From a bacterium (GTDB taxonomy: Bacteria; Patescibacteriota; Minisyncoccia; Phycocordibacterales; Phycocordibacteraceae), in assembly GCA_021778295.1 (NCBI GenBank), contig JAJYCP010000001.1, positions 66,513-130,512 of the forward strand: DNA of 64,000 nt. The letters are read 5' to 3'. Of the stretch, positions 2,666 to 62,938 are shown piece by piece. Numbering within the stretch: position 1 is the first letter of the stretch; each line of letters starts with the position of its first letter. Both the position numbers and the translations under genes were made by a program. The notes beneath the pieces were generated by a model. That model was not told the DNA's origin, made no database searches, and was given only the letters and a program-made list of their open reading frames with translations.

Positions 2666-3535
2666 TTAATTTCCTTCCGAATGAACCGTCGTTGTGGAAG
2701 ACCACGTAGGACCGGTAGAGCCTTCACTGTTTTGCACGCAGGTGCCACCCTCATCGACAATCGGACCGAGCTGGCAGTGGAGACCTTCGGCGCACTGCGG
2801 CGCATTTTGGATAAAGCCGCCGCAATGCGCGCCTACGCCCACTTTCGCGTTCTCTCCTCCGCTGACGTCACCGGTCGAAGAGGCTGTGGAGTCGGAAGAC
2901 GAGGAAGAAGAAGAACCGATATCACCGGTCGAAGAGGCTGTGGAGTCAGGAGACGAGGAAGATGAAGAAGAATCTCCCATCTCGCATTCCATCTCCAATT
3001 CCTTATTTATGTCTTCGCGGGTCAGCGGTCCGACATTTCCATAGCCCGTGGACTCGGAATTACCTGAAGAAACGATGCCTTGAGCGGCCTGCCAGCGTTG
3101 TACCGCCGCTAACGTCGACGAACCGAAATAGCCGGTGATGGCGTCTTCGGGGTAGATACTCTTATCCTTCCCGAGGAACGCTTGCAGACGCGAAACTTCA
3201 CCTTCCGTGGTCCGATCGGTAGAACCGATGCTCATATTAGTAGAAAGCAGGGTGCAATTACCGTTACTATTTGAGGTCGGCGTAGTATTGCTCGAAGGAT
3301 TCGAGCCATTCGATGTCGAAGTTTGCGTTGAAGTCGCCGTATTTTCGAGCGCAGCCTGCACATTTGCAATCGTTGCCGTATCGGCGCCAAATGCTTGCAG
3401 GAGATTAAGTATGGCCTGAATCTGAATCGTACTCAGGGATGCGGCTTGGGCAAAAGAAGCGCCGCCTAAAAGGCTGACGGCGAATGCCGCGCCGGCCGCT
3501 AGGGAAAGAAAACGATGATTTCTAAAGAAGTGCAT
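2666..3535 (-). CDS. Secreted protein with a peptidoglycan-binding (PG_binding_1-like) domain, an acidic Ser/Asp/Glu-rich repeat linker and a Cys-rich C-terminal domain.
   Basis: Signal peptide MHFFRNHRFLSLAAGAAFAVSLLGGASFAQAA. PG-binding-like motif LQAFLGKDKSIYPEDAITGYFGSSTLAAVQRWQAAQGI. Repeats (SSSSSS..DSTASSTGD) x2. C-terminal 8-Cys domain. Start chosen at the in-frame ATG at 3535. Confidence 0.6.
   Translation of the reverse strand: MHFFRNHRFLSLAAGAAFAVSLLGGASFAQAASLSTIQIQAILNLLQAFGADTATIANVQAALENTATSTQTSTSNGSNPSSNTTPTSNSNGNCTLLSTNMSIGSTDRTTEGEVSRLQAFLGKDKSIYPEDAITGYFGSSTLAAVQRWQAAQGIVSSGNSESTGYGNVGPLTREDINKELEMECEMGDSSSSSSSPDSTASSTGDIGSSSSSSSDSTASSTGDVSGGENAKVGVGAHCGGFIQNAPQCAEGLHCQLGPIVDEGGTCVQNSEGSTGPTWSSTTTVHSEGN
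2868..2975. repeat. Tandem 54-bp repeat x2 inside the CDS (encodes the duplicated Ser/Asp-rich segment).
   Basis: The unit tcaccggtcgaagaggctgtggagtc(g/a)g(a/g)agacgaggaagaaga... occurs twice in tandem with a few mismatches. Confidence 0.7.
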
Positions 3536-3625
3536 TGTTACATAAGCTAGCCAGTAATAACTCGAGAGACCCACCCATAATAGCACGGAACAGGAACCTG
3601 CTTCGAAGGGCTTTTGGGGAAAACT

Positions 3626-4765
3626 TTATAGCCCAAACGGGAGATTCTGCCCTTTTTTCTCGGGAGAAAGCACACGCGGAAGGTGCACTGTATCTCTTGC
3701 ATCCGCCGGAGATCCTCCAAGCGCGCCGCTGGAAGTCGTCGATGCGGAAGTCGTAGCAAAGACCTGCACTCCAAGCGTCGCGGCGGCGCGCGTGAGCACA
3801 TCGAGACGCGCCGTAGCGGAGAGGGAATCTTGGAATGCGCGCGCGGCGCCATTTTCGTCATGCCGCTTGAGCAGTACGCGCCCCTGTTCGACGAGCGCGG
3901 AAGCGCGTTGCAGTTCGCGGCGCGCATCAGCCGAACTCGAGGCATCGAGGGTGCTTGATGCCGCCCCGATGATGCCCGCGGAAACGCGCAAGGCCGTATC
4001 CGCTGCATTCTGCAGATGAAGAACATTCTGGTCGGCGATGGTCGACTGCTCTTGCGGTGGGATACCGTCCGGCAAAGTCGACGAGGCATCGCCGCTCGTC
4101 TGCGCGCTTGCGATCAAAGCAAGTTGCGTCTGGATAGCCGCCTGGAGATGCTCGGTCGCACCCTTGTTTCGCGAGTGCGCCACTACGGCGAGCACATTTT
4201 CGTAGGCCGCGAGGCGGGCCGCAAATCCCGCCGAGAGCATATCTGCGGCGGTCGGGTTGCGCATACGTTCCTGTGCCACGGCGATCGCCGCGCCGCTGGC
4301 GTTTTCGGTGAAGTTTGCGGCAAGTGCGGCCTCCGTCGTTGTACCGAGCTTCCCGTCGTTTGCCAGCAGTGCCGCTTCATCAATACGATACCCCGCAAAT
4401 GTCATCTGCAACGCCGCTTTCGCTTCGGGCGAAACCGCAAGAGCAAGTTGGACAGGCTCAATGACATTCACTTTTATCGGATACAAGATATCGCCGGGAA
4501 GTGTTCCTTCGGCGGCGTACGCAACGCCACTCGAAGAGAGCGCGAGTATAAGCACAGCAACGACGACTATGCCAATCGGCCGTCGCACATAGGCAACCCA
4601 TGCGTCAAAAAACGTCGCATGCACAGGCAAGGGCGCAACCGGTTCCCGAACAGGTTTCATCGTCGCGTACTCGCGCAGCAAAGCACGCATTTTTTCGCGC
4701 TCGGCTTCAGTGAGCGTTATATGAGCTCCCGCTTTTTTTATTCGTTTTTCAAAATCGTTTTTCAT
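3626..4765 (-). CDS. Membrane-anchored anti-sigma-factor-like protein (single TM; Ala/Thr-rich extracytoplasmic domain).
   Basis: ATG at 4765 overlaps the TGA of the upstream ECF sigma gene (ATGA overlap). N-terminal cytoplasmic segment, TM VVVAVLILALSS, and a long periplasmic low-complexity domain. Confidence 0.55.
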   Translation of the reverse strand: MKNDFEKRIKKAGAHITLTEAEREKMRALLREYATMKPVREPVAPLPVHATFFDAWVAYVRRPIGIVVVAVLILALSSSGVAYAAEGTLPGDILYPIKVNVIEPVQLALAVSPEAKAALQMTFAGYRIDEAALLANDGKLGTTTEAALAANFTENASGAAIAVAQERMRNPTAADMLSAGFAARLAAYENVLAVVAHSRNKGATEHLQAAIQTQLALIASAQTSGDASSTLPDGIPPQEQSTIADQNVLHLQNAADTALRVSAGIIGAASSTLDASSSADARRELQRASALVEQGRVLLKRHDENGAARAFQDSLSATARLDVLTRAAATLGVQVFATTSASTTSSGALGGSPADARDTVHLPRVLSPEKKGQNLPFGL

Positions 4766-15371: not shown

Positions 15372-16478
15372 ATGCTTGGCTTTTCAGATACCGGAGACAT
15401 CACAAGCATCGAAGCTTTGAAAGAGTTCGATAACCACCCGCTCGTCTCCTTTGCACACGACAAAGAATCCGGCTTGTCTGCAGTCATCGCTATCCATCGT
15501 GCCAACCCGGACGTCCCGTCTTTCGGCGCGACGCGTTTTTGGCACTACGCTTCCTCGCTTGAGGGCGTCAAAGATGCGCTTCGCCTCTCCCGACTCATGT
15601 CCTACAAAGCGGCGCTCGCAGGTCTTAATTGCGGTGGCGCAAAGGGCGTGATCATTGCGCAGAGCGATCCTCAAAAAATGGAGAACACCGTCCGTGACTC
15701 CATTTTGGGGGCGTATACAGCGCGTGTGAATCTCCTTGGCGGCCGTTTCGTGACAGGCAGCGATGTGGGCATCCGGCAGGTAGATCTTGATGCCATGCGT
15801 AAAGTTTCGCGGCATGTCATCGGCTTTAATGACAACTCAACGGAGTTTACGGCACTTGGCGTTTTCGAAGCGCTCAAAGCGGCCCTTATGGAAGTGTTTG
15901 GCTCAAGTGAACTCAAAGGCCGCGCCTTTGCGATTCAGGGCCTTGGAAAGATCGGTGAAGGGTTCCTCTCGTATATTTATGAGCCGGTTGGAACGGCGGG
16001 AAAGATTTTTGTATCAGACATTGACGCAAATCGCGTGGAAGAGATCAAACGCAAATATCCGCGTGTCATGGCGGTTGCGCCATCAGAAATTGATCGCCAG
16101 GAAGTAGACGTGTTTGCCCCCTGCGCGCTTTCAGGCGCTGTGAATAAACGCAACGCATCCCGCCTTGCGTGCAAAATTGTTGTGGGGGGCGCAAACAACC
16201 AGCTTGAAACAGAATCGGCAGGCGATGCATTGTTTGAGCGCGGCATTCTCTATGCGCCAGACTACGTGGTAAACGCAGGGGGGCTCATTGCGGTATTCGA
16301 TGAATACAAAAATCCGGCGTATGACCGTACTCGCGTCGAGCGTGCGGTACTTCACATTCCCGAGACTTTGCGAAAGATTTTTGCTGAAAGCCGCGCGGAG
16401 AAAATAGCGCCGAGCCGCATCGCAAACCGCATGGCAGAAAAGATTTTCAATGGATATGGAAATATCACATCGCGCTAA
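15372..16478 (+). CDS. Glu/Leu/Phe/Val-family amino-acid dehydrogenase (Leu/Phe/Val dehydrogenase-like).
   Basis: Catalytic Lys in GGAKGVI. NAD Rossmann motif GLGKIG. C-terminal VVNAGGLI. 368 aa. Confidence 0.8.
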   Translation: MLGFSDTGDITSIEALKEFDNHPLVSFAHDKESGLSAVIAIHRANPDVPSFGATRFWHYASSLEGVKDALRLSRLMSYKAALAGLNCGGAKGVIIAQSDPQKMENTVRDSILGAYTARVNLLGGRFVTGSDVGIRQVDLDAMRKVSRHVIGFNDNSTEFTALGVFEALKAALMEVFGSSELKGRAFAIQGLGKIGEGFLSYIYEPVGTAGKIFVSDIDANRVEEIKRKYPRVMAVAPSEIDRQEVDVFAPCALSGAVNKRNASRLACKIVVGGANNQLETESAGDALFERGILYAPDYVVNAGGLIAVFDEYKNPAYDRTRVERAVLHIPETLRKIFAESRAEKIAPSRIANRMAEKIFNGYGNITSR

Positions 16479-16502
16479 ATATTCTTTTACCCCTCCTAAA
16501 AC

Positions 16503-18044
16503 ATGAAATACCCTCTGCAAGAGATACGCACGCTCGAACTCCCGACCGCCTTGCGCAATATAGAGCACCTCGAAAAACGGCTGCGCGAGGACGCTCCGCG
16601 CCTCTGGGAACGTCGCGGCGAAATACAAGCGCTCAAACTCTTCCACGCCATGGCCGAACGAGTTCCCGCGTACAAGGATGTGCTGAAGAAAAACCGCATC
16701 CGCCCCGATTCCGTCCGCTCAATGCAAGATTTCAAACAGCTCCCACTTTTGGATAAGACCAGCTACCTGCGCGCCTATCCTCTGAAGGAGTTGTGCTGGG
16801 ACGGTGAGTTCTCCGAACGCGCATGGACCGTTTGCACGACTTCCGGCTCGACCGGCGAGCCGTTCTATTTTCCACACGGAGCGATGCAAGATGCGCAGTA
16901 TGCGCTCTTCGCCGAACTCTATCTGCGCACCAACTTTCAAATTCATAAGAAGCGCACGCTCTACGTCAACGGATTCCCAATGGGTGCGTGGATAGGCGGT
17001 GTCTTTACCTATAAAGCGATAACCATGCTCGCCGAGCGCGGCGATTATCCGCTCAGCATCATCAATCCGGGCATCAATAAAATCGAGATTATCAAAGCGA
17101 TTCGCAAGCTTGGCGACGACTTCGATCAGGTCATCATCGGCGGTTACGGTCCGTTCGTCAAAGATACGCTCGACGACGGCATTCGGGAGGGGATGGATTG
17201 GAAGAAATACAATCTCGGCTTCATCTTCTCGGCCGAAGGATTTTCCGAAGGTTTCAGGGATTACGTACTTGAGATGGCGGGGAAGAAAGACGATATCACC
17301 GCGACCCTCAATCACTACGGCACAGTTGACCTCGGGACGATGTCGTACGAAACGCCGCTTGCGGTGCTCGCGCGCCGCCGCGCGGTGGAGCATCCGGAAC
17401 TGTACCGGAAGCTGTTTGACAATTCCATCCGGCTGCCGACGCTGACGCAATTCCTCCCGAGCCTCTTTTTCTTTGAGGAAGTGGACCGGACGCTCGTGTG
17501 CTCCGCGGCGGCCGGCCTTCCGCTTGTACGATACGATTTAAAAGATGTCGGCGGCGTGTACCGGTACGACGAACTAACCGACGCGTTCCATGCGGCCGGC
17601 GTCGACCTCGAGAAGGAGCTCTCCGGCCGGGGTCTTGCGCAAACACGATGGAGCCTGCCGTTCGTATACGTCTACGAGCGGAACGATTTCTCGGTCAGTT
17701 TCTATGCATTCCAGATTTATCCGGCGACTATCCGGCGCGCGCTCGAGCAGACGTCGCTTCGCTCGAAGCTGACGGGGAAGTTCGCAATGCGCGTGGAGTA
17801 TGACCGCAACCAGAACCAGCGGTTTGAAGTCAATGTCGAACTCAAGAGCGGTGTGGTGCGTACCGATGCGCTGAAAGAGAAGGTGACGAAACTGGTGACT
17901 GAACAGTTGCTCAAAGAAAGTTCCGAGTACCGCGAGACACATCGCATGAAAGGACGTCGCGTCTTCCCACATGTAGTGTTCTGGCCATACGAGCACGAGC
18001 GCTTTTTCCGTTCGGGCATCAAGCAGAAGTGGGTAGTACGTTAG
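16503..18044 (+). CDS. PaaK/coenzyme F390 synthetase-family adenylate-forming enzyme (phenylacetate-CoA ligase-like).
   Basis: AMP-binding P-loop TSGSTGEP near residue 110. Has the size (513 aa) and layout of the PaaK/CapK family. Confidence 0.7.
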   Translation: MKYPLQEIRTLELPTALRNIEHLEKRLREDAPRLWERRGEIQALKLFHAMAERVPAYKDVLKKNRIRPDSVRSMQDFKQLPLLDKTSYLRAYPLKELCWDGEFSERAWTVCTTSGSTGEPFYFPHGAMQDAQYALFAELYLRTNFQIHKKRTLYVNGFPMGAWIGGVFTYKAITMLAERGDYPLSIINPGINKIEIIKAIRKLGDDFDQVIIGGYGPFVKDTLDDGIREGMDWKKYNLGFIFSAEGFSEGFRDYVLEMAGKKDDITATLNHYGTVDLGTMSYETPLAVLARRRAVEHPELYRKLFDNSIRLPTLTQFLPSLFFFEEVDRTLVCSAAAGLPLVRYDLKDVGGVYRYDELTDAFHAAGVDLEKELSGRGLAQTRWSLPFVYVYERNDFSVSFYAFQIYPATIRRALEQTSLRSKLTGKFAMRVEYDRNQNQRFEVNVELKSGVVRTDALKEKVTKLVTEQLLKESSEYRETHRMKGRRVFPHVVFWPYEHERFFRSGIKQKWVVR

Positions 18045-18061
18045 CCATAAGCTTAATTATC

Positions 18062-18847
18062 TTATTCTCCCTCTACTTTTTTTGTTTCGTTAGCATCGAG
18101 TCGTCCAGCTTCTTCCCATGCAAGATTGAAGAGACTCTCTATAACATCTGCAATATCCTGACTCTGAATAATCACACCGAATTCCTCGCTTGTTGAAATG
18201 AATACGATTTTGTCCGCATATATACGCAGTTCAGAAGAAAATGGGTATATATCGGCTGGTACACTTCGTACTCTTGAGGCGTCATTCGCATTTAACAGCG
18301 CGCGCTCGACAGTTTTTTCGTAAGGGAAAATAATCTTCGTTTTATACTTGCGTTGCAAATTTTGATTATCCCAAAAGGAAAATGATGATCCGAATGTAGT
18401 TTTTGATATAGGTAAAAATGTATACACTTGCGTCCCAGGCGGGTAGGCTAGTAGGTCATTACTAACAGTTTGTATTCCGCCAACTCCTTCGTAAAACAAC
18501 ACGTGTGGTTGGCTCTTTAATTTCTTCGATACTGAAAGAAGTTCGGAAAGTAATAAACTCATTTCATTTTCCTGTCGAGCCGAGTCCTGAGCCAACTTAT
18601 CAGCTCGTTCCACAAGTTTTTCTGGAGAGACAGCATGATATTTAAGAATCCCATTCTGTTGTGTTTTCTCGACAAATCCCTGTTCCACAAGCGTAGCAAG
18701 TAACATATAGGCCGACGATCGATTGAGTTTTGCTTCTCTTGCGGCCTCGTGCGCGCTTGCCGGACCCATAGTAAGTAATTCCTGATAAAGAACCGCCGCT
18801 TTTTGTGAAAGCCCAAATTCTTGGAGGTGTGACAGTAAAGTATTCAT
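18062..18847 (-). CDS. TrmB-family transcriptional regulator (paralog 1).
   Basis: N-terminal TrmB winged HTH: LQEFGLSQKAAVLYQELLTMGPASAHEAAREAKLNRSSAYMLLATLVEQGFV. Low-GC island. Confidence 0.65.
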   Translation of the reverse strand: MNTLLSHLQEFGLSQKAAVLYQELLTMGPASAHEAAREAKLNRSSAYMLLATLVEQGFVEKTQQNGILKYHAVSPEKLVERADKLAQDSARQENEMSLLLSELLSVSKKLKSQPHVLFYEGVGGIQTVSNDLLAYPPGTQVYTFLPISKTTFGSSFSFWDNQNLQRKYKTKIIFPYEKTVERALLNANDASRVRSVPADIYPFSSELRIYADKIVFISTSEEFGVIIQSQDIADVIESLFNLAWEEAGRLDANETKKVEGE

Positions 18848-19623
18848 GGAAATTCATCACCTATCCTCCGCGCTTCTCCGATCGCAAGGTCAAAAATTGT
18901 CTTCATTAATTCCGCAATTTTCTTACTTCTAATGAACGCTGTAAAAAGGAATGTGTGCGACATAAAAATCGTCTTATCATCGTAGACAGCAAAATCAGCA
19001 GGGAATCGATACCTGTCTTCTGAGATAAAAAAATGTGTATCCAAATCCTTAGACACAGGCATATTCTTAAATGCATTCATACTGTGAGGCTCTGCCGGAT
19101 GAATCCCAACCATACCGATGTTTCTTTCCATCCGTTTCTGGACATAGGGAGGTAGATAATCGGGTAAGGTTCTAAAAATTTCAGGACCGGAGGAAATAAC
19201 CCGCATATATCCCTCTTTTAGAGAAAGACTATCATCAAATCCGTCTATTAACCCCTGCCGTCCTTCAAGTATAGTAACTTTGGGCCTGTAACGTGCCCCC
19301 CGATGTTTCGAGGAAAGTGTCGGAAGCATGGTCCGCAGGTTTTTACTAAGCAGCTCATGCTTTTCAGTCTTTTCCTTTGCTAGTTGCAGAAGATGTTCGG
19401 GTGGGGCAGCCACATATTTTCTGACCCCATGAGTAGTTCCGATGCTTATGAGCCCTTGTTTAATAAGCCGTTCAATGACTACGTACATTGAGCTACGGTT
19501 GATACCTGTCTCCTTACTAGCCAACTGAGCTGTAGCTCCATCGAGGGACAAAAGTGCAAGGTAGACCTGAGCATCCTTTTCGGGAAGCCCTAGTGCAGAG
19601 AGTCGTTTTGCGAGGGGTGTCAT
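18844..19623 (-). CDS. TrmB-family transcriptional regulator (paralog 2).
   Basis: LSALGLPEKDAQVYLALLSLDGATAQLASKETGINRSSMYVVIERLIKQGLI. Overlaps paralog 1 by 4 nt. Confidence 0.65.
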   Translation of the reverse strand: MTPLAKRLSALGLPEKDAQVYLALLSLDGATAQLASKETGINRSSMYVVIERLIKQGLISIGTTHGVRKYVAAPPEHLLQLAKEKTEKHELLSKNLRTMLPTLSSKHRGARYRPKVTILEGRQGLIDGFDDSLSLKEGYMRVISSGPEIFRTLPDYLPPYVQKRMERNIGMVGIHPAEPHSMNAFKNMPVSKDLDTHFFISEDRYRFPADFAVYDDKTIFMSHTFLFTAFIRSKKIAELMKTIFDLAIGEARRIGDEFP

Positions 19624-21803: not shown

Positions 21804-22865
21804 ATGGTTCCCGATAACACAATTCTTCTTGAAATTCTGCGAGATGCTTGTCGAGCTCCCTCTGGTGATAATGTTCAGCCGTGGCGTTTCCGGTGGGACG
21901 GCTTGACACTATCCCTCTACAACATCCCTGGCATCCATAACTCATACCTTGATTTTGAAGAACGTGGCGCATATATCGCACATGGTGCGCTCCTCGAGAA
22001 CCTCGCGATTGCCGCCCCACATTACGGCTACAACGTCTCGATAATGCTCTTCCCGGATCAGGGGATGCCCGACCTTGTCGCACGCGTCGCCTTTGCGCCT
22101 AGCGCTACATATGACGACCCGCTGTATGCGAGCATTCAGAGACGCGCAACAAACCGTCGACCGTATGCATCACGCGCACTTGCGTCCGATGCACGTGCCG
22201 CGCTCAAGGACGTTGCGATGCCTGAGGGTATGACGCTCGTTCTCATTGAAGATGCTGCAAAAAGAGAGACGCTCGCGCCGCATATAAGCGCAATCGAGCA
22301 GCTCTTGCTCGGCCATGCGGCTCTGTCGAGCGCATTTTTCGCTCATATCGTGTGGACGAAGCGTGAAGAACGTGCGAGACGTAGCGGATTCTACGTAAAA
22401 ACCATGGAGTTCAATCCAGTGCAGGCATTCGTATTCAAGCTCGCGAGTAAGCCCTGGCTTATGCGCGCGTTCCGCAAACTTGGGCTCCCCGCACTCATTG
22501 CGAGTGAAGATGCTAAGATATATGGGGGAGGCTCGGCACTCGGGGGACTGTATGCGCCAGACTTTTCCAAAACCAGCGCACTTGCGCTCGGACGTGCACT
22601 TGAGCGCGTATGGCTTACTGCGACGACGCACGGACTCGCGTTCCAACCACTCTTCGGTACCACCATGATGGGGTACAAGTCGCGCCGCGGCGAAGCGATG
22701 TTCCTCTCGGATGCGGAACGTGCCGCCATTGAAGTAAGCGCGCTCTCTCTTGAGACGGCATTCAGAAATACGCGCGATACACCGACGCTCATCTTCCGTG
22801 TCGGCTATGCCCAGGAACCGAGTGCGTATACGTCTCGGAAGGAACCGAACATAGTTTATAATTAG
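21804..22865 (+). CDS. Nitroreductase-family protein (tandem/large form).
   Basis: N-terminal SGDNVQPWRF nitroreductase motif. A second nitroreductase-like half gives 353 aa in total. Confidence 0.65.
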   Translation: MVPDNTILLEILRDACRAPSGDNVQPWRFRWDGLTLSLYNIPGIHNSYLDFEERGAYIAHGALLENLAIAAPHYGYNVSIMLFPDQGMPDLVARVAFAPSATYDDPLYASIQRRATNRRPYASRALASDARAALKDVAMPEGMTLVLIEDAAKRETLAPHISAIEQLLLGHAALSSAFFAHIVWTKREERARRSGFYVKTMEFNPVQAFVFKLASKPWLMRAFRKLGLPALIASEDAKIYGGGSALGGLYAPDFSKTSALALGRALERVWLTATTHGLAFQPLFGTTMMGYKSRRGEAMFLSDAERAAIEVSALSLETAFRNTRDTPTLIFRVGYAQEPSAYTSRKEPNIVYN

Positions 22866-22872
22866 GGCACCC

Positions 22873-24471
22873 ATGGGTGCCCTTGCGAATTTTGATCTCT
22901 TGTCGGTGGGCGTTGCCATCGCGGGCACGCTTGTGCTCGGGTTCGTCATTTATTTCACAGACCAGAAGAGCAGTACGAACCGCATTTTCTTCGCGTTCGC
23001 ATTCGTCACCGCAATATGGGGCTTGCTCAACTATCTCAGTTATCGCGTCGAAGATCTATCCATCGCGTTCGCACTCCTACGCTTCGAACTCGCGCTCGCC
23101 GTGTGGCAAACGTTCATAATTTTTCGACTCCTGCTCATCTTTCCGGATCACAACGACACGCTTCCACGGCGCTATCTGCTCGCGCTTGTCGTGTACACGG
23201 GCGTCATATCCGTGCTGTGCCTTACGCCGTTCGTCTTCGAGCGTATCACTGCAGTTACCGCCACTGGGTATATCAAAGACATAGCCGTCGGGCCGGCAAT
23301 CGCGCTCTTCGGCGTCACAAGTATAGGGTTCGTCCTTGCAGGATGGGTAGTGTGCGCCCGAAAGACGTTCCGCCTCATGGGCACACAGCGTGCGCAAACG
23401 GGATTCTTCCTGCTCGGAGCGATTACGATGTTCTTGCCAATCATCATCCTGAACTTCATCTTCCCAGCATTCTTGCGGGATTCGAGGTTCGTTCCGTACG
23501 GTGCGGTCTCGATATTCCCGTTCGTACTGTTCACGTCCTACGCAATCCTGCGTTTCCATTTGTTCAACATCAAGGTCATCACGACTTCCATACTCGTATT
23601 CGTGCTTTCCGTCGTTTCATTTGGCCAGGTCCTTTTCTCGGATACGTTGCCTACGATGCTGTTCCAGACAAGCGTTTTCGTCCTCGTCCTCGTCTTCGGC
23701 ATCAATCTGATACGGAGCGTCATACGCGAAGTAGAGCAACGAGAGAAAATACAGAAGCTCGCCGAGGAGCTCGCGGCGACCAACGAGCGACAGGAGACGC
23801 TGATTCACTTCATCGGGCACGAAGTCAAAGGGTTCCTGGCCAAGGACGCAGGCGCGTTCACTTCGCTTGTTGACGGCGATTTTGGCGTATTGCCCGGGGA
23901 ATTGAAACCGCTTGTGGAACGCGCGCTCGTTGAGACGCGGCAGGGCGTTGCGTCGGTGGAGGCTCTCCTAAAGGCGGCAAACTTGAAGAAAGGGACCGTA
24001 ACGTATACAAAAGCGCCGTTTGACCTCAAAGAGCTCGTTGCGGGGGCCGTAGAGAAAGAGAGGCCTGCGGCTGAGAACAAAGGGCTCGCGCTCTCGTTTA
24101 CAGCCGACGACGCGTCGTACCAAATGACGGGGGATAAGGGGCAAATCAACGACCACGTCCTGCGCAACCTCATAGATAACGCTGTCAATTACACGCCATC
24201 GGGCTCGATTGCAGTATCGCTCAGGCGCGAGGGCGACAAGCTCGTGTTCGCAGTGAAAGACAGTGGCGTCGGCATCACCGACGAAGACAAGCAGCGTCTT
24301 TTCACCGAGGGCGGCCACGGCAAGGATTCGCAGAAGGTGAATGTCCATTCCACCGGCTATGGTCTTTACATCGCAAAGCAGATAGTCGAGGCGCACGGCG
24401 GCACCATCCGCGCCGAGTCTGAAGGGCAGGGCAAGGGCTCGACGTTTATCGCAGAATTTCCGGCCCAGTAA
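22873..24471 (+). CDS. Sensor histidine kinase with a multi-TM N-terminal sensor.
   Basis: About 7 TM helices. H-box HFIGHEVKG. N box NLIDNAVNYT. G1 DSGVGI. G2 GYGLYIAKQIVEAHGG. No response regulator adjacent. Confidence 0.8.
   Translation: MGALANFDLLSVGVAIAGTLVLGFVIYFTDQKSSTNRIFFAFAFVTAIWGLLNYLSYRVEDLSIAFALLRFELALAVWQTFIIFRLLLIFPDHNDTLPRRYLLALVVYTGVISVLCLTPFVFERITAVTATGYIKDIAVGPAIALFGVTSIGFVLAGWVVCARKTFRLMGTQRAQTGFFLLGAITMFLPIIILNFIFPAFLRDSRFVPYGAVSIFPFVLFTSYAILRFHLFNIKVITTSILVFVLSVVSFGQVLFSDTLPTMLFQTSVFVLVLVFGINLIRSVIREVEQREKIQKLAEELAATNERQETLIHFIGHEVKGFLAKDAGAFTSLVDGDFGVLPGELKPLVERALVETRQGVASVEALLKAANLKKGTVTYTKAPFDLKELVAGAVEKERPAAENKGLALSFTADDASYQMTGDKGQINDHVLRNLIDNAVNYTPSGSIAVSLRREGDKLVFAVKDSGVGITDEDKQRLFTEGGHGKDSQKVNVHSTGYGLYIAKQIVEAHGGTIRAESEGQGKGSTFIAEFPAQ
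24398..24461. repeat. 64-bp direct repeat, copy 1 (last 21 codons of the HK gene).
   Basis: Identical to 26573..26636 (gcggcaccatccgcgccgagtctgaagggcagggcaagggctcgacgtttatcgcagaatttcc). Confidence 0.85.
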
Positions 24472-24568
24472 ACGACCCATCTTGATATTTTTTAATTTTG
24501 TGATATACAAAGGTCAGAAATGACTTTCGAAAGTAGTTCTTTTCCACCCAGCCTGTGGGAGTCAAGTC

Positions 24569-25495
24569 ATGTCTCAGAAAAACGTTTTGATCGTTAGTAA
24601 CACTGACGATGCACATGCTACGGCAGTCCAGGATCGACTTAGGGAACGCTCAATACTGGTGGGCCGTTTGGACAGCGACACGTTCACTTTTGGACAGCAT
24701 GTATGGCGCATCCGCTCAGACACAAACCTGGAATCAAGCTCCTCCTGGTATGTTCCAGATGTGAATGTCATCTGGTATCGGAAAGTGAGGTTCCCAGAAC
24801 CAACTAATGCAGTCCGATCCTTTCTAAATCAGGAAGCTCAAGGGTTGTTTGACTGTATCCTCGCCGATTATCACGACTGTAGATGGGTCAACCCGCGTGA
24901 TCGACTTGCTGAAGCAAGGTCCAAGATCGTGCAGTTGCAACGCGCTAAAGGTGCAGGACTGCGTATTCCCGATACAATCGTCACCACCAGCGTGGAAGCA
25001 TTAGGAGAATTTTCGGCTCGCCACAATGGTCAAATCGTTGCAAAACCAATCCAAGCACAAATTGTGGGTTCAGGCGACGATGCCCTAGTCATTGGGACCA
25101 GGCAGTTAAGCTTGGGGCATTTCGAATCAGCGGTCAGATTCTCTCCCTGTTATGCGCAAGAGCGGTTGTCATTGAAGTCAGAGATCAGGGTCGTTGCTTT
25201 CGGAGACCGGCTCCATTCTTTTCGGCTTACTGCGAAAGAAAAAGCCGATGATCTCAAGCAGCTCAAGTTGAGCAAAATTGATCATGAGCGATGCGAATTG
25301 GATGAAAGCACCTCACGAAAGATTCGCTCAGTCATGTCGCTCTACGGTTTGGAGTTCGCTGCAATTGATCTCGCCGTCATCGACGATGAGGAGCCCGTGT
25401 TTTTAGAGCTCAATCCGAACGGTCAGTGGCTGTGGCTGCAGTATATGACCGGTGAGAACCTAATCGACCCGTTCATAGACCTGCTATGTCCTTAA
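24569..25495 (+). CDS. MdnC/MvdD-like graspetide (microviridin-type) ATP-grasp macrocyclase.
   Basis: SD GGGAG. Matches MdnC block by block: VLIVS..DD, VIWYRKVRF (compare VWYRRMRY), and the C-terminal FAAIDLAVIDDEEPVFLELNPNGQWLWLQ (compare YGAIDMIVTPDERYIFLEINPVGEFFWLE). Confidence 0.8.
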   Translation: MSQKNVLIVSNTDDAHATAVQDRLRERSILVGRLDSDTFTFGQHVWRIRSDTNLESSSSWYVPDVNVIWYRKVRFPEPTNAVRSFLNQEAQGLFDCILADYHDCRWVNPRDRLAEARSKIVQLQRAKGAGLRIPDTIVTTSVEALGEFSARHNGQIVAKPIQAQIVGSGDDALVIGTRQLSLGHFESAVRFSPCYAQERLSLKSEIRVVAFGDRLHSFRLTAKEKADDLKQLKLSKIDHERCELDESTSRKIRSVMSLYGLEFAAIDLAVIDDEEPVFLELNPNGQWLWLQYMTGENLIDPFIDLLCP

Positions 25496-25559
25496 CGTGT
25501 TGCTTCCGAGCCCATTACCCCAGCGGGTAGTGGGCTCCTCTGTTAGTATAATCAGACGC

Positions 25560-26303
25560 ATGATAAAAGTTGCATCTAACAAATTGACAGCATTGACCAA
25601 AGTATTGCCACAACCGCTTGATTTTATAGTCGTTGGAGAAATGCACGGTTCCAGACAAAATGCGCCTCTCGTACAAGAATTGTTATTGACCGTTCTTACA
25701 GAACAGAAACCAGTAACCGTCGCTTTTGAATGGCTGCTCACCGATCCCGAACTCGATGCGTTGCGAAGATATGTATGTGGTGGCGAGACACCAGCGCAAC
25801 TATCAACTTTCTTTCTGGACTCCGATGGACGTTTTACTTTGGAACACATCGCCTTATTGAAGTGGATTCGCGCCTATAATGCTACGCACCATAATCTTAT
25901 TGATCTATACGCATTCGATAAGCCAAGCAAGAGCGGGGCATCAGATCAAGTCATGGCTGACTCATTACGTACTTATAAAAAGCGCCACCCCGAGTCACTA
26001 ATTCTGATTGAGACTGGCAATATGCACGCAAGAAATTCAATCGATATGTCTATAGGCGCCGGGCAGGTATCAATGGCTACGATATTGAAAAAAGACTATC
26101 TTGTGTTTTCCATTTTCTTGCACTATATACAGGGCAAGATATTGGTAGAAGGAGAAAATAGAGATGTAATGGAGGCGACGTCACAACAAGAGGGTCCGAG
26201 AACTTATTTTGATGCCATGATTGAGATACCTGTTTCGGAGCCAGCTCGAAATCCTAATGACTTGACGGAGATTTTTCAATTGCTACAATCCCGGCCAGCG
26301 TGA
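25560..26303 (+). CDS. ChaN/TraB/Tiki-superfamily protein (putative metalloprotease-like).
   Basis: Motif FIVVGEMHGSRQNAPLVQELL resembles the GxxH core of PF04187. TATAAT sits 7 nt before ATG 25560 (the track ORF begins at GTG 25497). Confidence 0.45.
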   Translation: MIKVASNKLTALTKVLPQPLDFIVVGEMHGSRQNAPLVQELLLTVLTEQKPVTVAFEWLLTDPELDALRRYVCGGETPAQLSTFFLDSDGRFTLEHIALLKWIRAYNATHHNLIDLYAFDKPSKSGASDQVMADSLRTYKKRHPESLILIETGNMHARNSIDMSIGAGQVSMATILKKDYLVFSIFLHYIQGKILVEGENRDVMEATSQQEGPRTYFDAMIEIPVSEPARNPNDLTEIFQLLQSRPA

Positions 26304-26333
26304 ATCCCACGCTGCCTTGATACGGAGAAACGT

Positions 26334-26477
26334 ATGTTGCCATTCCTTTTGGAGTTTGCCAACAAACCAGATCTCGAGCCGGAGCTTCTCCAGCGAAAGG
26401 ATCTTTCCCACGAAGAGGTGGTCGATATGAGCACCTTCCACACCCGTTGCGGTCACCCTCGCCACATCGACGACTGA
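26334..26477 (+). CDS. Candidate graspetide precursor peptide (47 aa), not in the ORF track.
   Basis: GGAG lies 6 nt before ATG. Translates to MLPFLLEFANKPDLEPELLQRKDLSHEEVVDMSTFHTRCGHPRHIDD*. The LPFLLEFA leader resembles the PFFARFL recognition helix of microviridin precursors. The C-terminus is rich in Ser/Thr and Asp/Glu. Followed by a terminator. Confidence 0.55.
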   Translation: MLPFLLEFANKPDLEPELLQRKDLSHEEVVDMSTFHTRCGHPRHIDD

Positions 26478-26495
26478 TTGTATTCGGCCGCGCCA

Positions 26496-26532
26496 GAACC
26501 CTCGCAATCAAATGCGAGGGTTTTCTTTTTAT
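26496..26532 (+). terminator. Rho-independent terminator after the precursor gene.
   Basis: AACCCTCGCA-atcaaa-TGCGAGGGTT followed by TTCTTTTT. Confidence 0.65.
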
Positions 26533-26572
26533 GCGTAACCGAGGAAGTGTCGGTCCTGATGTGGAACACACA

Positions 26573-26636
26573 GCGGCACCATCCGCGCCGAGTCTGAAGG
26601 GCAGGGCAAGGGCTCGACGTTTATCGCAGAATTTCC
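26573..26636. repeat. 64-bp direct repeat, copy 2 (orphan HK 3'-end fragment).
   Basis: Identical to 24398..24461. In the HK frame it encodes GTIRAESEGQGKGSTFIAEFP followed by AG*. Confidence 0.85.
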
Positions 26637-26732
26637 TGCGGGATAGATTCAAAGAATCTCGTGCCCCGGCCTGATTCAGGCGCTTTTGATTTGCAAAACA
26701 AAATAGTGCTACAGTATGGGAATTAGCAGATA

Positions 26733-27023
26733 ATGATTGAGAATACGCACATGGAAAAGGCACTTGTGGGCGTCGCGGCAGGAGTAGCGCTCTTTGCCGC
26801 CACAGCGGTTCCGGCATTTGCAGCAGCGAATCAAGGATATGCGTCCGGTTATCCTCACGCAATCGCGAATACTATCTGTGCAAACCATGGGGCTTTCGCA
26901 GCATTTGCAGGGAGTCCGGGAATTATAGAGGAATACGTTGATGCCGATCAGGCAGCCGGCATTTCGCTCGGCTCGGAGACGGGTCCGGCAAACAGCGGAC
27001 TTTGCGGCAATCCGCAAAACTGA
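26733..27023 (+). CDS. Small secreted hypothetical protein.
   Basis: Signal peptide VGVAAGVALFAATAVPAFAAA. TTGATT-N18-TACAGT promoter upstream. Strong terminator downstream. Confidence 0.5.
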   Translation: MIENTHMEKALVGVAAGVALFAATAVPAFAAANQGYASGYPHAIANTICANHGAFAAFAGSPGIIEEYVDADQAAGISLGSETGPANSGLCGNPQN

Positions 27024-27030
27024 TTCTGTT

Positions 27031-27078
27031 TCTTTAAAGCACAACACCCGCCAAGTGGCGGGTGTTGTGCTTTAAAGC
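27031..27078. terminator. Bidirectional rho-independent terminator.
   Basis: AAAGCACAACACCCGCC-AAGT-GGCGGGTGTTGTGCTTT. Confidence 0.7.
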
Positions 27079-27341: not shown

Positions 27342-27539
27342 AGGAGGATGCATCTGCTCCGGGAGCAGGACCATGAGTACATTCCTCGAAGCTTACAGCT
27401 TCAGTACACCTTGCGGATATTTTGCTCCAAATCTTCGCAAAATATGCTCGCAAGGTCTTCGAGTCCTGCACGGAAGCGCCCTGCGCTTCCTTCCCGTCGC
27501 AGTAACAAAAAACACCCGAAGGGGTGTTTTCTCGTTCTG

Positions 27540-27611
27540 CTCCGGGAGCAGGACTCGAACCTGCAACCAACGCCTTAACAGGGCGCTGCTCTACCATTGA
27601 GCTATCCCGGA
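27540..27611 (-). tRNA. tRNA-Asn (anticodon GTT).
   Basis: Cloverleaf folded by hand: acceptor TCCGGGA/TCCCGGA, D-arm GCTC-AATGGTA-GAGC, anticodon arm GCGCC-CTGTTAA-GGCGT, T-arm GCAGG-TTCGAGT-CCTGC, discriminator G. No encoded CCA. Terminator hairpin AAACACCCCTTCGGGTGTTTTTT lies downstream. Confidence 0.85.
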
Positions 27612-31169: not shown

Positions 31170-31320
31170 GAACCCGTTTCAAACCCCCGCCTCCCCTGCG
31201 AAGGGTGTGCGGCGGAAAGAGGCTTACGGAGCCCGACGGGGCGAGTACGAGCCGCTTTTCGAGCACGAAAAGACGGCGTACTCCTTTCCGTTGCATACCC
31301 TTCGCAGGGGCTTGATGTGG
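31170..31320. repeat. MITE/REP-like palindromic element, copy A.
   Basis: Starts GAACCCGTTTCAAACCCCC. Has the internal imperfect palindrome GAGTACGAGCCGCTTTTCGAGCACGAAAAGACGGCGTACTC shared with the copies at 41527, 53103 and 62789. Abuts the stop of the 31322 gene. Confidence 0.7.
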
Positions 31321-39835: not shown

Positions 39836-41526
39836 AATGGCGGCGTACGCGGCGGCGAGATCCTGAGATCGCTCCCGATGAAATATTTCTTGATGCGTCG
39901 AATGCGCCGGATTTTGACCGCGCGCGATTCGAGGGGCGGCTCGAGAAACCGCTTTCGCGCGGAACGTTTCTGACGCTCTCGCTCACGCTCGCGTTTCTGC
40001 TTGGCATCCTCATCATCCGTTCATGGAATCTTGAAATTACCAATGGCGCCGCTTTTGCCGCCGAGAGCGCCCATAACAGCCTCGAAGTGACGACATTGTT
40101 CGCGTCGCGTGGCGTCATCACCGATCGTTACGGAAATATACTTGCCAACAATGTTGCCAAAGCGGACGGCAGCACGATACGCAATTACCCGGTACCTTCT
40201 CTCGGTCAGATCATCGGGTATGTCTCGTATCCGAAGAAAGATTCGCATGGTGTGTATTACGATACGCGCGAAACCGGCATTGCCGGACTTGAAGCGGAGT
40301 ACGATTCATTCCTCGCCGGCACAAACGGCCACATTCTCACCGAGCGGGACGCGTTCGGTAATATCCGTTCAGAAGGAGGTATCATTCCCGCAAAAGACGG
40401 AGGGACGCTCAAACTGTCGATCGACGCGCCGCTTGAACAGCTTTTCGCGCGCGCCATTACGGATGTCGCGCGCAAACAGCACTTTATGGCCGGCGCCGGC
40501 GTCATCATGGACGTACACTCCGGCGCGATACGCGCTATTTTTTCCTATCCGAGCTATGACCCGAACGTCATGGCGAACGGGGGTCCCGCGGCCACCATCA
40601 ACGCCTACAACACCGATCAAGGCTATCCTTTCCTCGACCATGCGGTGCAGGGCGTGTACGCGCCCGGTTCCATTGTGAAGCCGTTTATCGCTTCCGGAGC
40701 GCTCACCGACGGAATCATTACGCCGAGTACCACTATTGACGATCCCGGCTTCCTTTCGCTGCCTGACCCTTATCATCCCGGCAAGACGTTTATCTACAAA
40801 GGGTGGAAAGCGCTCGGCATAGTCGATGTGAGAAAAGCAATCGCCTGGTCCTCGGATGTTTTCTTCTACACGGTCGGCGGCGGCTTCGGAAAACAAAAAG
40901 GCCTTGGCATCGACCGGCTCGACTACTGGTATCGGCAATTCGGTTTCGGGCGGCCGACCGGCATTGATTTGCCGGAAGAGGCAAGCGGACTGGTCCCCAG
41001 TCCCGCATGGAAGGAAAAAACGCTCGGCGAACCGTGGTATCTCGGCGATACATACTTCACGGCAATCGGACAATACTCAATGCAGGTAACGCCACTCCAG
41101 ATAGCGCGCGCCACCGCTGCGATAGCCAACGACGGGAAGCTCTATACTCCGACCTTGCTCGCGGGGCAGACGCCCTCGTATGTGACCGTACCGGTAGCCA
41201 CTTCGACGTTTGCCGTTGTGCGCGAGGGGATGCGCGAAGGTGTGACCGGTGCGCTCGCGCAGGCGATCAACCTCCCGTACGTGAGCGTGGCGGCAAAGAC
41301 CGGTACCGCGCAAACAGGCGTACACAACCAGTATGACAATGCGTGGGTTGAAGGATTTTTCCCATACCATAATCCGCAATACGCCTTTTCGGTCGTACTT
41401 GAACGGGGGCCAAACGGCGCAGGCGAACAGGCGGTGAATGTCATGCGTGAACTTTTCGACTCCCTTCACGCTGCCAACTCGCCCTACGTCGGCGGAACTG
41501 CCACCACCACAGCGCTCGCGCCCTAA
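39832..41526 (+). CDS. mrdA: Penicillin-binding protein 2 (elongation transpeptidase).
   Basis: SxxK GSIVKP, SxN SSD, KTG AKTGTA. N-terminal TM and dimerisation domain. 564 aa. Confidence 0.85.
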   Translation: MKWRRTRRRDPEIAPDEIFLDASNAPDFDRARFEGRLEKPLSRGTFLTLSLTLAFLLGILIIRSWNLEITNGAAFAAESAHNSLEVTTLFASRGVITDRYGNILANNVAKADGSTIRNYPVPSLGQIIGYVSYPKKDSHGVYYDTRETGIAGLEAEYDSFLAGTNGHILTERDAFGNIRSEGGIIPAKDGGTLKLSIDAPLEQLFARAITDVARKQHFMAGAGVIMDVHSGAIRAIFSYPSYDPNVMANGGPAATINAYNTDQGYPFLDHAVQGVYAPGSIVKPFIASGALTDGIITPSTTIDDPGFLSLPDPYHPGKTFIYKGWKALGIVDVRKAIAWSSDVFFYTVGGGFGKQKGLGIDRLDYWYRQFGFGRPTGIDLPEEASGLVPSPAWKEKTLGEPWYLGDTYFTAIGQYSMQVTPLQIARATAAIANDGKLYTPTLLAGQTPSYVTVPVATSTFAVVREGMREGVTGALAQAINLPYVSVAAKTGTAQTGVHNQYDNAWVEGFFPYHNPQYAFSVVLERGPNGAGEQAVNVMRELFDSLHAANSPYVGGTATTTALAP

Positions 41527-41736
41527 AACCCATTTCAAACCCCCGCTCGGGTATGCGACAGAAAGGAGTACGCCGTCTTTTTCTGCTGAAAAAGCGGCTC
41601 GTACTCGTCCCCGTTACCACAGAGAGTACTTCCACGTTTCTAACTCGCTCCGCTCGTAAGAAACGTGTAGTCGCGGGCTCCGAGAGCCTCTTTCTGCCGC
41701 ATACGCCTCGCGGGGAGGTTGGGGTTTGAAATGGGC
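41527..41736. repeat. MITE/REP-like palindromic element, copy B (longest, with terminal inverted repeats).
   Basis: AACCCATTTCAAACCCCC...GGGGTTTGAAATGGGCC termini are reverse complements. The interior carries the family hairpin. Starts at the nucleotide after the mrdA stop. Confidence 0.75.
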
Positions 41737-51755: not shown

Positions 51756-53102
51756 TTGTCTTATTTATTTGTCCTAGCAAATTACTCTATGCAAGTAGGG
51801 CGTTGGAATCATCAATCGACAGGCGCGCATTCGCCAAGCGGCGGACGCCCATATTCGCCGCGTCCCTCAAGGCGCGACGGGCCGAGCGGCTCTGGGCGTT
51901 TTGACAATCACGGCGGTTCCGGTCGCGGCGGCTACGGTCGTCGTGGCCGTGCTCCGGTGCGGCGCAAGGGTTTCGGCTCTTTCGGCGAGACGGAGTCTGA
52001 AATCTCAAAGTTCATGAATAAAACGGTCGTCACGACCGAAGAGCCGGTGTTCGTCCCCGAACACAAATTCTCAGATTTTGCGGTACATGAAAGGTTGCAG
52101 AAGAACATAGCCGCAAAGGGCTACGATCTCCCGACGCCTATCCAGGATAAAGCCATCCCGCACGCTCTTTTGGGCCAGGATGTCGTCGGTCTTGCAGAAA
52201 CGGGAACCGGGAAGACGGCTGCCTTCCTCATTCCGCTTATCGATAAGGTTATGAGGCAAAAAGGGGAGCGCATTCTCATTATGGCACCCACCCGCGAGCT
52301 TGCGGTGCAGATTGAAAAAGAGCTTGCCGGTTTCGCAAAAGGTCTCGGGTTCCGCGGCATGGTCGCGGTCGGCGGCGCGAATATCGGACCTCAAATCTCG
52401 ATGCTTCGATATGAACCGGCGTTCGTCATCGGTACCCCCGGGCGCTTGAAGGATCTCATGGAACGCCGTGCGCTCGATCTTTCCGGTTTCGGCACGGTTG
52501 TCCTCGACGAAGCGGATCGCATGCTCGATATGGGTTTCATCGACGATATGCGCGCTATCCTCGGGATGATGCGCAAAGAACGCCACACGCTCTTTTTCTC
52601 CGCAACGATGTCGAAAGATATCGAACGGCTTATCGGCGATTTTCTTTCAAGTCCGGTCATCATCTCGGTAAAAAGACGTGATACTCCTTCAAGCGTCGAT
52701 CAAGATGTCGTCCGCATCCCGCGTGGGAAAGACAAGTTCGATGTGCTTGTCGAACTTCTTAAAAATTCCGACTTCAGCCGCGTGCTTGTCTTCGGCCGTA
52801 CCAAGTTCGGCGTGGAGAAGCTCGCCAAGGCGCTCTCGCGCCTCCACATCCACGCGGAGAGCATCCACGGCAATAAGACGCAGGGCGCGCGCCAGAGAGC
52901 ATTGGAGGCCTTCAAGGCAGGGAAGGTGAGCGTGCTCGTCGCGACCGACGTCGCGGCACGCGGCATTGATATCCCTGCCGTCTCGCACGTCATCAACTAC
53001 GACCTTCCGTCCACCTACGAGGACTACGTGCACCGCATCGGCCGCACCGGCCGCGCGGACAAGAAAGGGAAGGCTCTGACCTTCGTCCAGGAGCGCTACT
53101 AA
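51756..53102 (+). CDS. DEAD-box ATP-dependent RNA helicase with an N-terminal Arg/Gly-rich extension.
   Basis: Q-motif PTPIQ, motif I AETGTGKT, DEAD, SAT, HRIGRTGR. The in-frame upstream RGG-rich region spans 51789-52013. Alternative start at ATG 52014. Confidence 0.85.
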   Translation: MSYLFVLANYSMQVGRWNHQSTGAHSPSGGRPYSPRPSRRDGPSGSGRFDNHGGSGRGGYGRRGRAPVRRKGFGSFGETESEISKFMNKTVVTTEEPVFVPEHKFSDFAVHERLQKNIAAKGYDLPTPIQDKAIPHALLGQDVVGLAETGTGKTAAFLIPLIDKVMRQKGERILIMAPTRELAVQIEKELAGFAKGLGFRGMVAVGGANIGPQISMLRYEPAFVIGTPGRLKDLMERRALDLSGFGTVVLDEADRMLDMGFIDDMRAILGMMRKERHTLFFSATMSKDIERLIGDFLSSPVIISVKRRDTPSSVDQDVVRIPRGKDKFDVLVELLKNSDFSRVLVFGRTKFGVEKLAKALSRLHIHAESIHGNKTQGARQRALEAFKAGKVSVLVATDVAARGIDIPAVSHVINYDLPSTYEDYVHRIGRTGRADKKGKALTFVQERY

Positions 53103-53196
53103 AACCCACCTCAAACCCCCGCTCGGGTATGCGACAGGAAGGAGTACGCCGTCTTTTTCTGCCGCATACGCCTCGCGGGGAAATGTGGGTTTGAGA
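53103..53196. repeat. MITE/REP-like element, copy C (short, internally deleted form).
   Basis: AACCCACCTCAAACCCCCGCTCGGGTATGCGACAG...CTGCCGCATACGCCTCGCGGGGAAATGTGGGTTTGAG. It is copy B with the middle removed. Begins right after the helicase stop. Confidence 0.7.
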
Positions 53197-53209
53197 TGAG
53201 TTCTAGTCT

Positions 53210-62788: not shown

Positions 62789-62938
62789 GAACCCCTCTCA
62801 AAACTCCAGACGACGCGAGGGGTATGCCGCAGGAAAGGGCTCTCGGAGCCTGACGAGGCGAGAGCGAGACGCTTTTTCAGCAGAAAAAGACGGCGTACCT
62901 TTCCTGCGGCATACCCGAGCGGCGTTTTGAAATGGGTT
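62789..62938. repeat. MITE/REP-like element, copy D (inverted orientation relative to copy B).
   Basis: Ends ...GGCGTTTTGAAATGGGTTC, the reverse complement of the GAACCCATTTCAAA terminus. Its interior is the reverse complement of copy B's left half. Fills the gap between the alkA-like stop and the C39-like gene stop. Confidence 0.7.

Follow-up and report, generated by a model that had tools for sequence, protein, structure and literature searches.

How did a gene cassette come to lie between two identical copies of the end of a sensor kinase gene? The question is raised by a 64,000-nucleotide (nt) stretch of a patescibacterial genome (GenBank assembly GCA_021778295.1, contig JAJYCP010000001.1, positions 66,513–130,512; hereafter the window, to whose numbering and forward strand all unlabelled coordinates refer), in which a histidine kinase (HK) gene (22873–24471, + strand; 532 amino acids (aa), Pfam domains HisKA_7TM and HATPase_c, protein ending in EFPAQ) is followed by about 2.1 kb of graspetide-type genes and then by a second copy of its own 3′ end. 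An earlier reading of the letters, referred to here as the original prediction, had taken this arrangement as an insertion that regenerated the kinase terminus without a recombinase. That view proved largely right, and we refine it as follows: the incoming DNA probably comprised a new HK 3′ end as well as the cassette, and the second copy is the older end, moved aside at a hotspot of recombination, so that the repeat is better described in these terms than as a target duplication made by the cassette. We consider it probable that the repeat is the scar of a 3′-end (C-terminal) displacement by recombination, for which conserved kinase sequence served as the anchor.

In the self-comparison of the window, 24398–24461 and 26573–26636 were identical at all 64 of 64 nt, as had been claimed, and the pair could be extended to 71 nt with 2 mismatches (24394–24464 and 26569–26639, both +). 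The number of exact 64-mers expected by chance in 64 kb is about 6e-30, and scanning of the whole window gave no other long near-perfect direct repeat. Copy 1 had been described as the last 64 nt of the HK coding sequence; it does lie within the 3′ end but stops 7 nt short of the TAA stop codon (24469–24471), corresponding to codons about 509–530 (GGTIRAESEGQGKGSTFIAEFP), the last part of the HATPase_c match (residues 427–531). Copy 2 lies outside any long open reading frame (ORF), and the kinase frame continues from it through Ala and Gly to a stop (EFPAG, TAG at 26643–26645), exactly as predicted. Copy 1 is the working 3′ end of the seven-transmembrane (7TM) histidine kinase and copy 2 a non-coding relic of an earlier kinase end; the claims that two copies of the HK C-terminal coding sequence bracket the cassette and that an intact terminus stands upstream of it were both borne out. 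A weak terminator-like hairpin lying 3′ of the relic (26669–26681, +; pattern match only) is possibly the old HK terminator. No inverted repeats were found at the cassette ends in the window, and Rfam search of the repeat and its surroundings returned two tRNAs only and no other known RNA. The sequence is metagenome-derived, which would allow a chimeric join at the repeat, and an assembly artefact had been named as a possible refutation; however, since both copies were found at about 100% identity in contigs of at least five samples or assemblies (L176–L180), all with the same architecture, and a related species has a remnant of the same cassette beside the corresponding repeat copy, an assembly artefact has practically no chance of being the explanation. 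The exact HK and ATP-grasp proteins of the window were carried by 15–17 contigs. Judged by the names of its homologues, the organism belongs to Patescibacteria, near Paceibacteria / Kaiserbacteria / Minisyncoccota.

The arrangement recurs at orthologous kinases. Eighty species-representative loci were each searched with the last 150 nt of their own HK gene, and also at the protein level by tblastn, giving 14 HK 3′-end relics in 11 of 79 loci (about 1 in 7). All 14 were downstream and on the same strand, and no relic was found upstream or inverted (566 kb of downstream and 637 kb of upstream sequence searched). A twelfth locus (L089) had a complete second tandem kinase instead of a relic, the last 141 nt of which were 84% identical. 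The relics were 39–209 nt long and 78–98% identical to the attached end; when aligned they extended to the gene end except for two truncated ones (L033b and L078), while their left boundary was variable (−74 to −218, a span of about 140 nt) and their similarity was lost no more than about 10 nt from the stop-codon end, giving way to lineage-specific tails. With such lengths the repeat is no ordinary short target-site duplication, as the original prediction had held, and transposon insertion was rejected in view of the variable repeat lengths, the absence of inverted repeats at the cassette ends and the absence of a transposase. The cargo between copies comprised the graspetide operon, HicAB (twice), NUDIX, GT2 glycosyltransferase, HAD hydrolase, methyltransferases, aminoacyl-tRNA-synthetase-like, LD-carboxypeptidase, alpha/beta hydrolases, CYTH, citrate-synthase-like and cytidylyltransferase genes.

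As a control, 1074 other ORFs of the same loci were subjected to the same test, and about two clear cases were obtained (about 0.2% versus 14% for HK), one at a TrmB-family regulator (L023), the other at an rpoD-like gene (L058). The former locus carries a Peptidase_S9 gene (around 2378–4180 in L023) within direct repeats of about 125 nt (2080–2203 and 4175–4300) that span the TrmB 3′ end plus its intergenic flank; tandem gene duplication as the origin of this insert was rejected, the two neighbouring proteins being unrelated. At the latter, the last 46 nt of the rpoD-like gene (1467–1512 in L058) occur again 1.3 kb downstream (2830–2875), around two unknown ORFs. No recombinase was seen at either scar. 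Because the control gave only about two clear cases, the kinase end is a strong but not the sole hotspot. It is also the edge of conserved synteny, because its upstream partner, a nitroreductase-like gene (21804–22865, + in the window; Pfam PF00881), was kept on the same strand in 46 of the 80 species-level loci, and the genes downstream in the window were found in L012 only, two of them also in L032.

The closest relative, L001 (equivalent to L012), whose kinase is 87% identical to that of the window, carries three kinase 3′ ends: the real one, a copy after a HicB-like/HicA pair, and a copy after a pair encoding 158 and 533 aa. The attached end of the window has its match in the third copy, tail and about 20 nt of flank included; behind this copy lies what is left of the window's ChaN-like gene, deletion-fused to the end of the window's ORF 26733–27023. 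Reciprocally, the tail of the window's relic plus about 12 nt of flank (TGCGGGATAG ATTCAAAGAA) matches the attached HK tail of L001/L012. Because the tails match in both directions, the kinase end attached in one genome is the one dissociated in the other. Comparison of window positions 24485–26993 with the corresponding segment of the relative (L001 10441–10601, equal to L012 14441–14601) showed that the graspetide cassette is decaying there: one deletion takes the ATP-grasp gene and most of the ChaN-like gene, leaving about 100 nt of the 3′ end of the latter, and the other takes the peptide gene, the terminator, the relic and most of ORF 26733–27023. This genome has two other cassettes in addition to the decayed remnant, and the window's cassette appears to predate the split between the two. 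The expectation that relatives lacking the cassette would have a single kinase terminus was correct for a 72% relative (L002) but failed for L001/L012 with its three ends.

A further comparison, with L183 (ATP-grasp 89% identical), gave 78–80% identity for the kinase end but 87–97% for the tail, promoter and cassette, with the step near the stop codon, suggesting that the kinase end and the cassette have different histories. The donor of the window's cassette was not found: L183 shares tail, promoter and cassette, and its contig ends before the relic position; L094 has an unrelated downstream flank. Neither was an empty-site allele (HK ending in PAG-stop, above 90% identity) found, the HK cluster consisting of a single member sequence. 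Donor-like arrangements do exist in L088 and L067, where HicAB lies directly behind HK without a relic.

The kinase gene itself is mosaic. Between the window and L012, identity was 91–94% over the first 700 nt or so, which encode the fast-evolving 7TM sensor part, and 67–84% after that (0.92 for the 5′ half versus 0.77 for the 3′ half), although family-wide it is usually the 3′ half that is more conserved (median 0.60 versus 0.47 for the 5′ half). Over the 3′ part, the two genomes resembled each other no more than they resembled genomes with only 40–50% identity in the 5′ half. The mosaic tract extends over about 850 nt upstream of the repeat, which points to a foreign history of the 3′ half in the window or L012, and this history would be tied to the insertion event. 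Because the relics of L012 are window-like, its 3′ half is most likely the one that was replaced. Moreover, attached ends and relics differed by 69 synonymous and 26 nonsynonymous codons, including TCG/AGC serine switches, where about 25% synonymous differences would be expected at random; therefore, the copies diverged as working kinase ends in separate lineages, and simple fill-in duplication is ruled out for the divergent copy pairs.

The original prediction had also stated that no integrase or transposase lies nearby, and this was supported within the sequence searched. Pfam and PHROGs searches of the cassette ORFs of eight scarred loci revealed no integrase, resolvase or transposase, and PHROGs gave no match for the unknown cassette ORFs. 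Gene tables with precomputed Pfam assignments contained no recombinase in about 10 kb upstream (all strains), in about 3 kb downstream in the window's own sequence, or in about 10 kb downstream in two sister strains, which diverge from the window at 27543/27551. Searching 4938 ORFs, taken from the window and from the fetched flanks (up to about 10 kb on each side) of about 100 loci, with phmmer and XerD, Cre, gamma-delta resolvase and Hin as seeds gave nothing below E = 0.01, the sensitivity of these four seeds being limited. Pfam search of 44 further window ORFs gave housekeeping families only, among the 25 of 57 families listed. An attC-like fold was not found on either strand of the repeat (z-scores −1.2 to +0.7). 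The junctions appear imprecise, and some of them fuse or truncate cargo genes; for instance, a hydrolase ORF in L069 runs in frame into a relic, and a minus-strand gene in L082 begins 7 nt from one.

Our proposal builds on what was directly seen, that is, the architecture, its recurrence and polarity, the fact that no recombinase was detected, the mosaic structure of the kinase and the selection signature. The incoming DNA would have consisted of the 3′ part of a related kinase, its tail and whatever lay behind it, here the graspetide operon. The conserved catalytic-domain coding sequence of the resident kinase would have provided the homology anchor, and the far end of the incoming DNA would have been joined inside or just before the last 70–210 nt or so of the resident gene, whereby the kinase would be rebuilt with the donor's end and the former end pushed downstream as a silent fragment. 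Repeated events would stack cassettes with the newest beside the gene. RecA-type recombination and DNA uptake, presumably by competence proteins, would be sufficient, with no need for a dedicated recombinase. Any given junction could have arisen by one of three sub-routes: (a) homology-facilitated illegitimate recombination of linear DNA, (b) formation of a circle by recombination between two copies and a subsequent single crossover, as in the Rhs model, or (c) a double crossover of the ordinary kind, with the relic of the donor pairing with the intact end of the recipient. All three yield the same product and are not separable here, but (a) or (c) is favoured for at least one event because of the long foreign tract in the kinase, and the tail order in L012 would be neatly explained by (b)-type reshuffling. 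Regarding the alternative left by the original prediction, homologous or site-specific capture, the homology-driven one fits much better and the site-specific one is less likely. The com genes are conserved across the phyla of the candidate phyla radiation (CPR), and Saccharibacteria have been shown to undergo ComEC-dependent transformation, with linear DNA being integrated homologously (PMC10633639); by analogy, this would be compatible with the proposal for the organism of the window.

Several observations weigh against the displacement account. Of about 16 relics, at least 5 (in 4 species) start 3–8 nt ahead of one and the same GGCGGCAC motif, and a further 4 start 34–44 nt upstream of it; in all, 5–7 of 16 left boundaries cluster at this motif within a whole range of about 140 nt. 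The cluster falls at the left edge of the nucleotide block that is most conserved, and it hints at a preferred site that displacement would not predict. In addition, several cassettes end neatly a few nt past a stop codon or terminator, a recombinase might possibly be encoded elsewhere in the genome, and no donor sequence was found for the illegitimate junction. A recombination event of its own could have produced the mosaic breakpoint in HK. L012 has an attached tail resembling the oldest tail of the window, which requires either a donor with an ancestral tail or reshuffling of the array, and the 64/64 identity needs an extra assumption, which may be gene conversion or recent re-acquisition from a near-identical donor.

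The same clustering at GGCGGCAC in four species can be read in favour of site-specific integration, in which the HK 3′ end would hold the attB site of a tyrosine or serine recombinase encoded elsewhere, and integrase-less, cis-mobilisable cassettes, with a replacement end included in attP, would accrete in tandem in the manner of integrons, cis-mobilisable elements (CIMEs) or tycheposons. Such integration would also account for the direct repeats that bracket each cassette, the regenerated gene end, the compactness of the cassettes and arrays up to three deep, and a strain-variable island at the neighbouring tRNA-Asn suggests that island integration is active in the lineage. However, no recombinase turned up in any cassette, in the flanking tables or in the four-seed search, and the spread of left boundaries (about 140 nt) and repeat lengths (39–209 nt), the fused or truncated cargo genes and the absence of an attC-like hairpin (z within the range given above) all count against this reading. 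Nor would a mosaic tract of about 850 nt upstream of the repeat be expected from crossover at a core site, and the same type of scar exists at two unrelated genes, TrmB and rpoD-like. On this balance, we regard site-specific integration as unlikely.

Two further explanations were considered. If foreign DNA had been ligated into a staggered break, fill-in would have produced a target duplication in situ, of 64 nt here and 40–210 nt elsewhere, which is in line with the identity of the two copies in the window and with the L023 repeats of about 125 nt that run past the TrmB stop codon into the flank. Against this, in most of the aligned HK cases similarity breaks off within about 10 nt of the stop-codon end and the copies carry different lineage-typical tails, the divergent pairs differ mostly at synonymous sites including the TCG/AGC switches, and the relic tail of the window matches the attached tail of another species, all of which makes such a duplication very improbable. 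Alternatively, the relics could be the remains of a second tandem kinase paralog after deletion of its 5′ part, as the two complete tandem genes of L089 (84% identity over the last 141 nt) might suggest. This account leaves unexplained why three ends with unrelated cargo are stacked, why attached and dissociated ends correspond between the window and L012, and why the relics are so short and always include the very gene end; no relic keeps upstream HK domains, and no long 5′-truncated second kinase was found as an intermediate in 79 loci, so that we consider it very improbable as well. In a bolder picture, modules of the form 'gene end–cargo–gene end' would be self-propagating, integrase-free mobile cassettes in Patescibacteria. 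The cargo would be set free or passed on when the repeats recombine, genomes having a homologous kinase, TrmB or sigma-factor end would capture it after DNA uptake, and the conserved gene end would be a RecA-dependent equivalent of integron attI. This, or a hidden recombinase acting at GGCGGCAC, is a speculation of which we remain doubtful.

The cassette between the two copies has a G+C content of 0.475, compared with 0.555 for the kinase. On its kinase side stand the tail of the attached end, termed G (GGCCCAGTAA; last codons Ala-Gln-stop), and a leader (together 24462–24568, +), in which a promoter-like TTGATA-N16-TGaTATACA motif (about 24482–24509, +) is kept in L183, L005 and L092 and would act as the cassette promoter. 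The first gene (24569–25495, +) encodes a putative graspetide maturase, an MvdD/MdnC-type ATP-grasp ligase with sub-threshold Pfam matches (PF21068 and PF14397) and PDB matches to MdnC, MdnB, AMdnB, CdnC and PsnB (E down to 4e-18). It is followed by a gene for a ChaN/Tiki-superfamily-like protein of 247 aa (25560–26303, +; weak match to Pfam PF04187, no PDB match by sequence), which co-occurs with the ATP-grasp protein in L005, L008, L094–L099, L172 and L174 and for which a role as leader peptidase is one possibility, and by a candidate precursor peptide of 47 aa (26334–26477, +) with an N-terminal LPFLxxFA and a C-terminal FHTRCGHPRHxDD, kept beside the two enzymes in 8 other loci (9 with the window). 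An intrinsic-terminator-like hairpin (26495–26524, +) closes the cassette, and equivalents follow the peptide gene in L005, L008 and L094. Judged from sequence, the cassette would be a self-contained graspetide-type operon with its own promoter-like motif and terminator-like hairpin, its MdnC/MvdD-type ATP-grasp gene lying, as in graspetide clusters, beside a small predicted precursor with conserved leader and core. The three-gene unit of MdnC-like ATP-grasp, ChaN/Tiki-like protein (247–260 aa) and peptide of 44–49 aa was seen in many Patescibacteria (L005, L008–L011, L094–L099, L172–L175 and L183), and its peptides share an invariant FH(T/S)RCGHPR..DD. Our literature search found no publication that joins graspetides with CPR bacteria.

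The idea that this cassette targets kinases was rejected, as elsewhere the same three genes have unrelated neighbours and no repeats: rluA-like and ABC-F genes on either side in L008–L011, cysS beside them in L172, and GNAT and L25 genes on either side in L174. In L005 the cassette lies behind a different kinase, with a long relic. Across the loci of this three-gene unit, flanking repeats were mostly absent. The hotspot property belongs to the HK 3′ end rather than to the graspetide cassette.

Regarding the neighbourhood of the kinase, the nitroreductase-like gene stands next to the 7TM histidine kinase gene, often 6–80 nt away, as a widely conserved pair in Paceibacteria-like genomes; among the 40 nearest loci listed, the gap was 80 nt or less in 26 (at least 26 of all 46) and 0.8–1.6 kb in 14. 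No response regulator was noticed beside the pair (21804–24471 in the window) or its counterparts in related loci. Genes found upstream of HK were nitroreductase-like, Peptidase_S9, UCP032817-like and TrmB (two), and intI was not among them.

The tRNA-Asn gene further downstream (27539–27611, −) has its 3′ end duplicated as a 19-nt exact direct repeat (27353–27371 and 27536–27554, 183 nt apart). Sister strains (L176/L177/L181/L182) match the window at about 100% identity as far as 27543/27551, which lies inside the tRNA-Asn 3′ end, and the islands beyond this point differ, one having an AlwI-type restriction enzyme with two Dam-like methylases and the other a type I restriction–modification system. 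In L012, a 3.2-kb insert at tRNA-Asn (16212–19550) carries IucA/IucC-like and two hydrolase genes and is flanked by a 74-nt duplication. No integrase was seen in these tRNA-Asn islands within the available sequence. Elsewhere in the window, interspersed intergenic repeats of about 45–85 nt, 79–90% identical and in both orientations, have GAAAAAGACGGCGTAC-like cores with palindromic stretches (31198–31281, 62815–62898, 41523–41595, 53099–53171, 41688–41733 and 53153–53198); they gave no Rfam match and are possibly related to repetitive extragenic palindromic (REP) sequences or miniature inverted-repeat transposable elements (MITEs). A perfect 22-nt inverted repeat with a 2-nt loop at 27032–27077 (CTTTAAAGCACAACACCCGCCA / TGGCGGGTGTTGTGCTTTAAAG), behind ORF 26733–27023, is probably a bidirectional terminator. 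At 2868–2969, a tandem 54-nt coding repeat, with two copies 94% identical, forms an acidic stretch in the gene at 2666–3586 (−).

The genomes of Patescibacteria are tiny, and the ways in which accessory genes enter them are poorly understood. The scars described here are direct and datable footprints of gene gain beside a conserved operon, apparently without mobile-element enzymes, and they imply that an essential-looking sensor kinase has repeatedly been rebuilt from foreign 3′ ends. If this is general, stacked relics at conserved gene ends could help to find cargo of recent arrival (the graspetide operon, for example), to put acquisitions into a time order and to gauge cross-species recombination in uncultured lineages.

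Among known systems, e14 and phage 21, which integrate at icd in E. coli, insert into the 3′ end of a protein gene and supply a replacement for it. As in those cases, the gene end is duplicated here, the attached end probably coming from the incoming DNA and the native end being left as a pseudogene fragment; unlike those elements, which encode an integrase and use a fixed crossover site, the cassettes have variable boundaries and no integrase was found. Integron arrays are likewise composed of small stacked cassettes, with the newest beside the insertion point and toxin–antitoxin genes among the cargo, but at the kinase loci examined we detected no IntI near HK and no attC-like fold, the cassette has its own promoter-like motif, and the 'site' is the coding sequence of a functional gene. 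A resemblance to integrons has been noted explicitly for the effector–immunity modules of the type VI secretion system in Vibrio cholerae, for which sequential displacement by homology-facilitated illegitimate recombination was put forward (Kirchberger et al. 2017, PMC5361080). The kinase loci share with these arrays a conserved upstream anchor, a new module beside the gene, old genes and 3′ ends shifted back, the build-up of arrays and the lack of a detected integrase, and a homologous donor-type tract lies on one side of the insert, to which it may be linked. The V. cholerae arrays are explained by selection for retained immunity genes, whereas the relics here are non-coding and of no apparent benefit.

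The arrays of 'C-terminal displacement' at Rhs genes, for which the proposed model is recombination that needs no dedicated recombinase (Jackson et al. 2009, PMC2935791), offer a further parallel. In both, an intact gene is followed by same-orientation strings of its own 3′ fragments, seen as direct repeats, each fragment keeps a conserved core of varying length, and an incoming end shunts the incumbent end downstream; an end attached in one genome and dissociated in a relative, as found between the window and L012, also belongs to this pattern. Variable toxin tips with immunity genes were not seen, HicAB being the sole toxin-related cargo. Our literature search found no publication joining C-terminal displacement with histidine kinases, and the differences from Rhs are clear: a two-component histidine kinase takes the place of a polymorphic toxin, the replaced end is functionally equivalent with a tail that differs by 1–4 codons only, it is unrelated downstream cargo that varies, not a toxin tip and immunity gene, the core fragments are much shorter (39–209 nt), and the hosts are Patescibacteria. 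C-terminal displacement, known from polymorphic toxin loci, would in this way be extended to an ordinary signalling gene.

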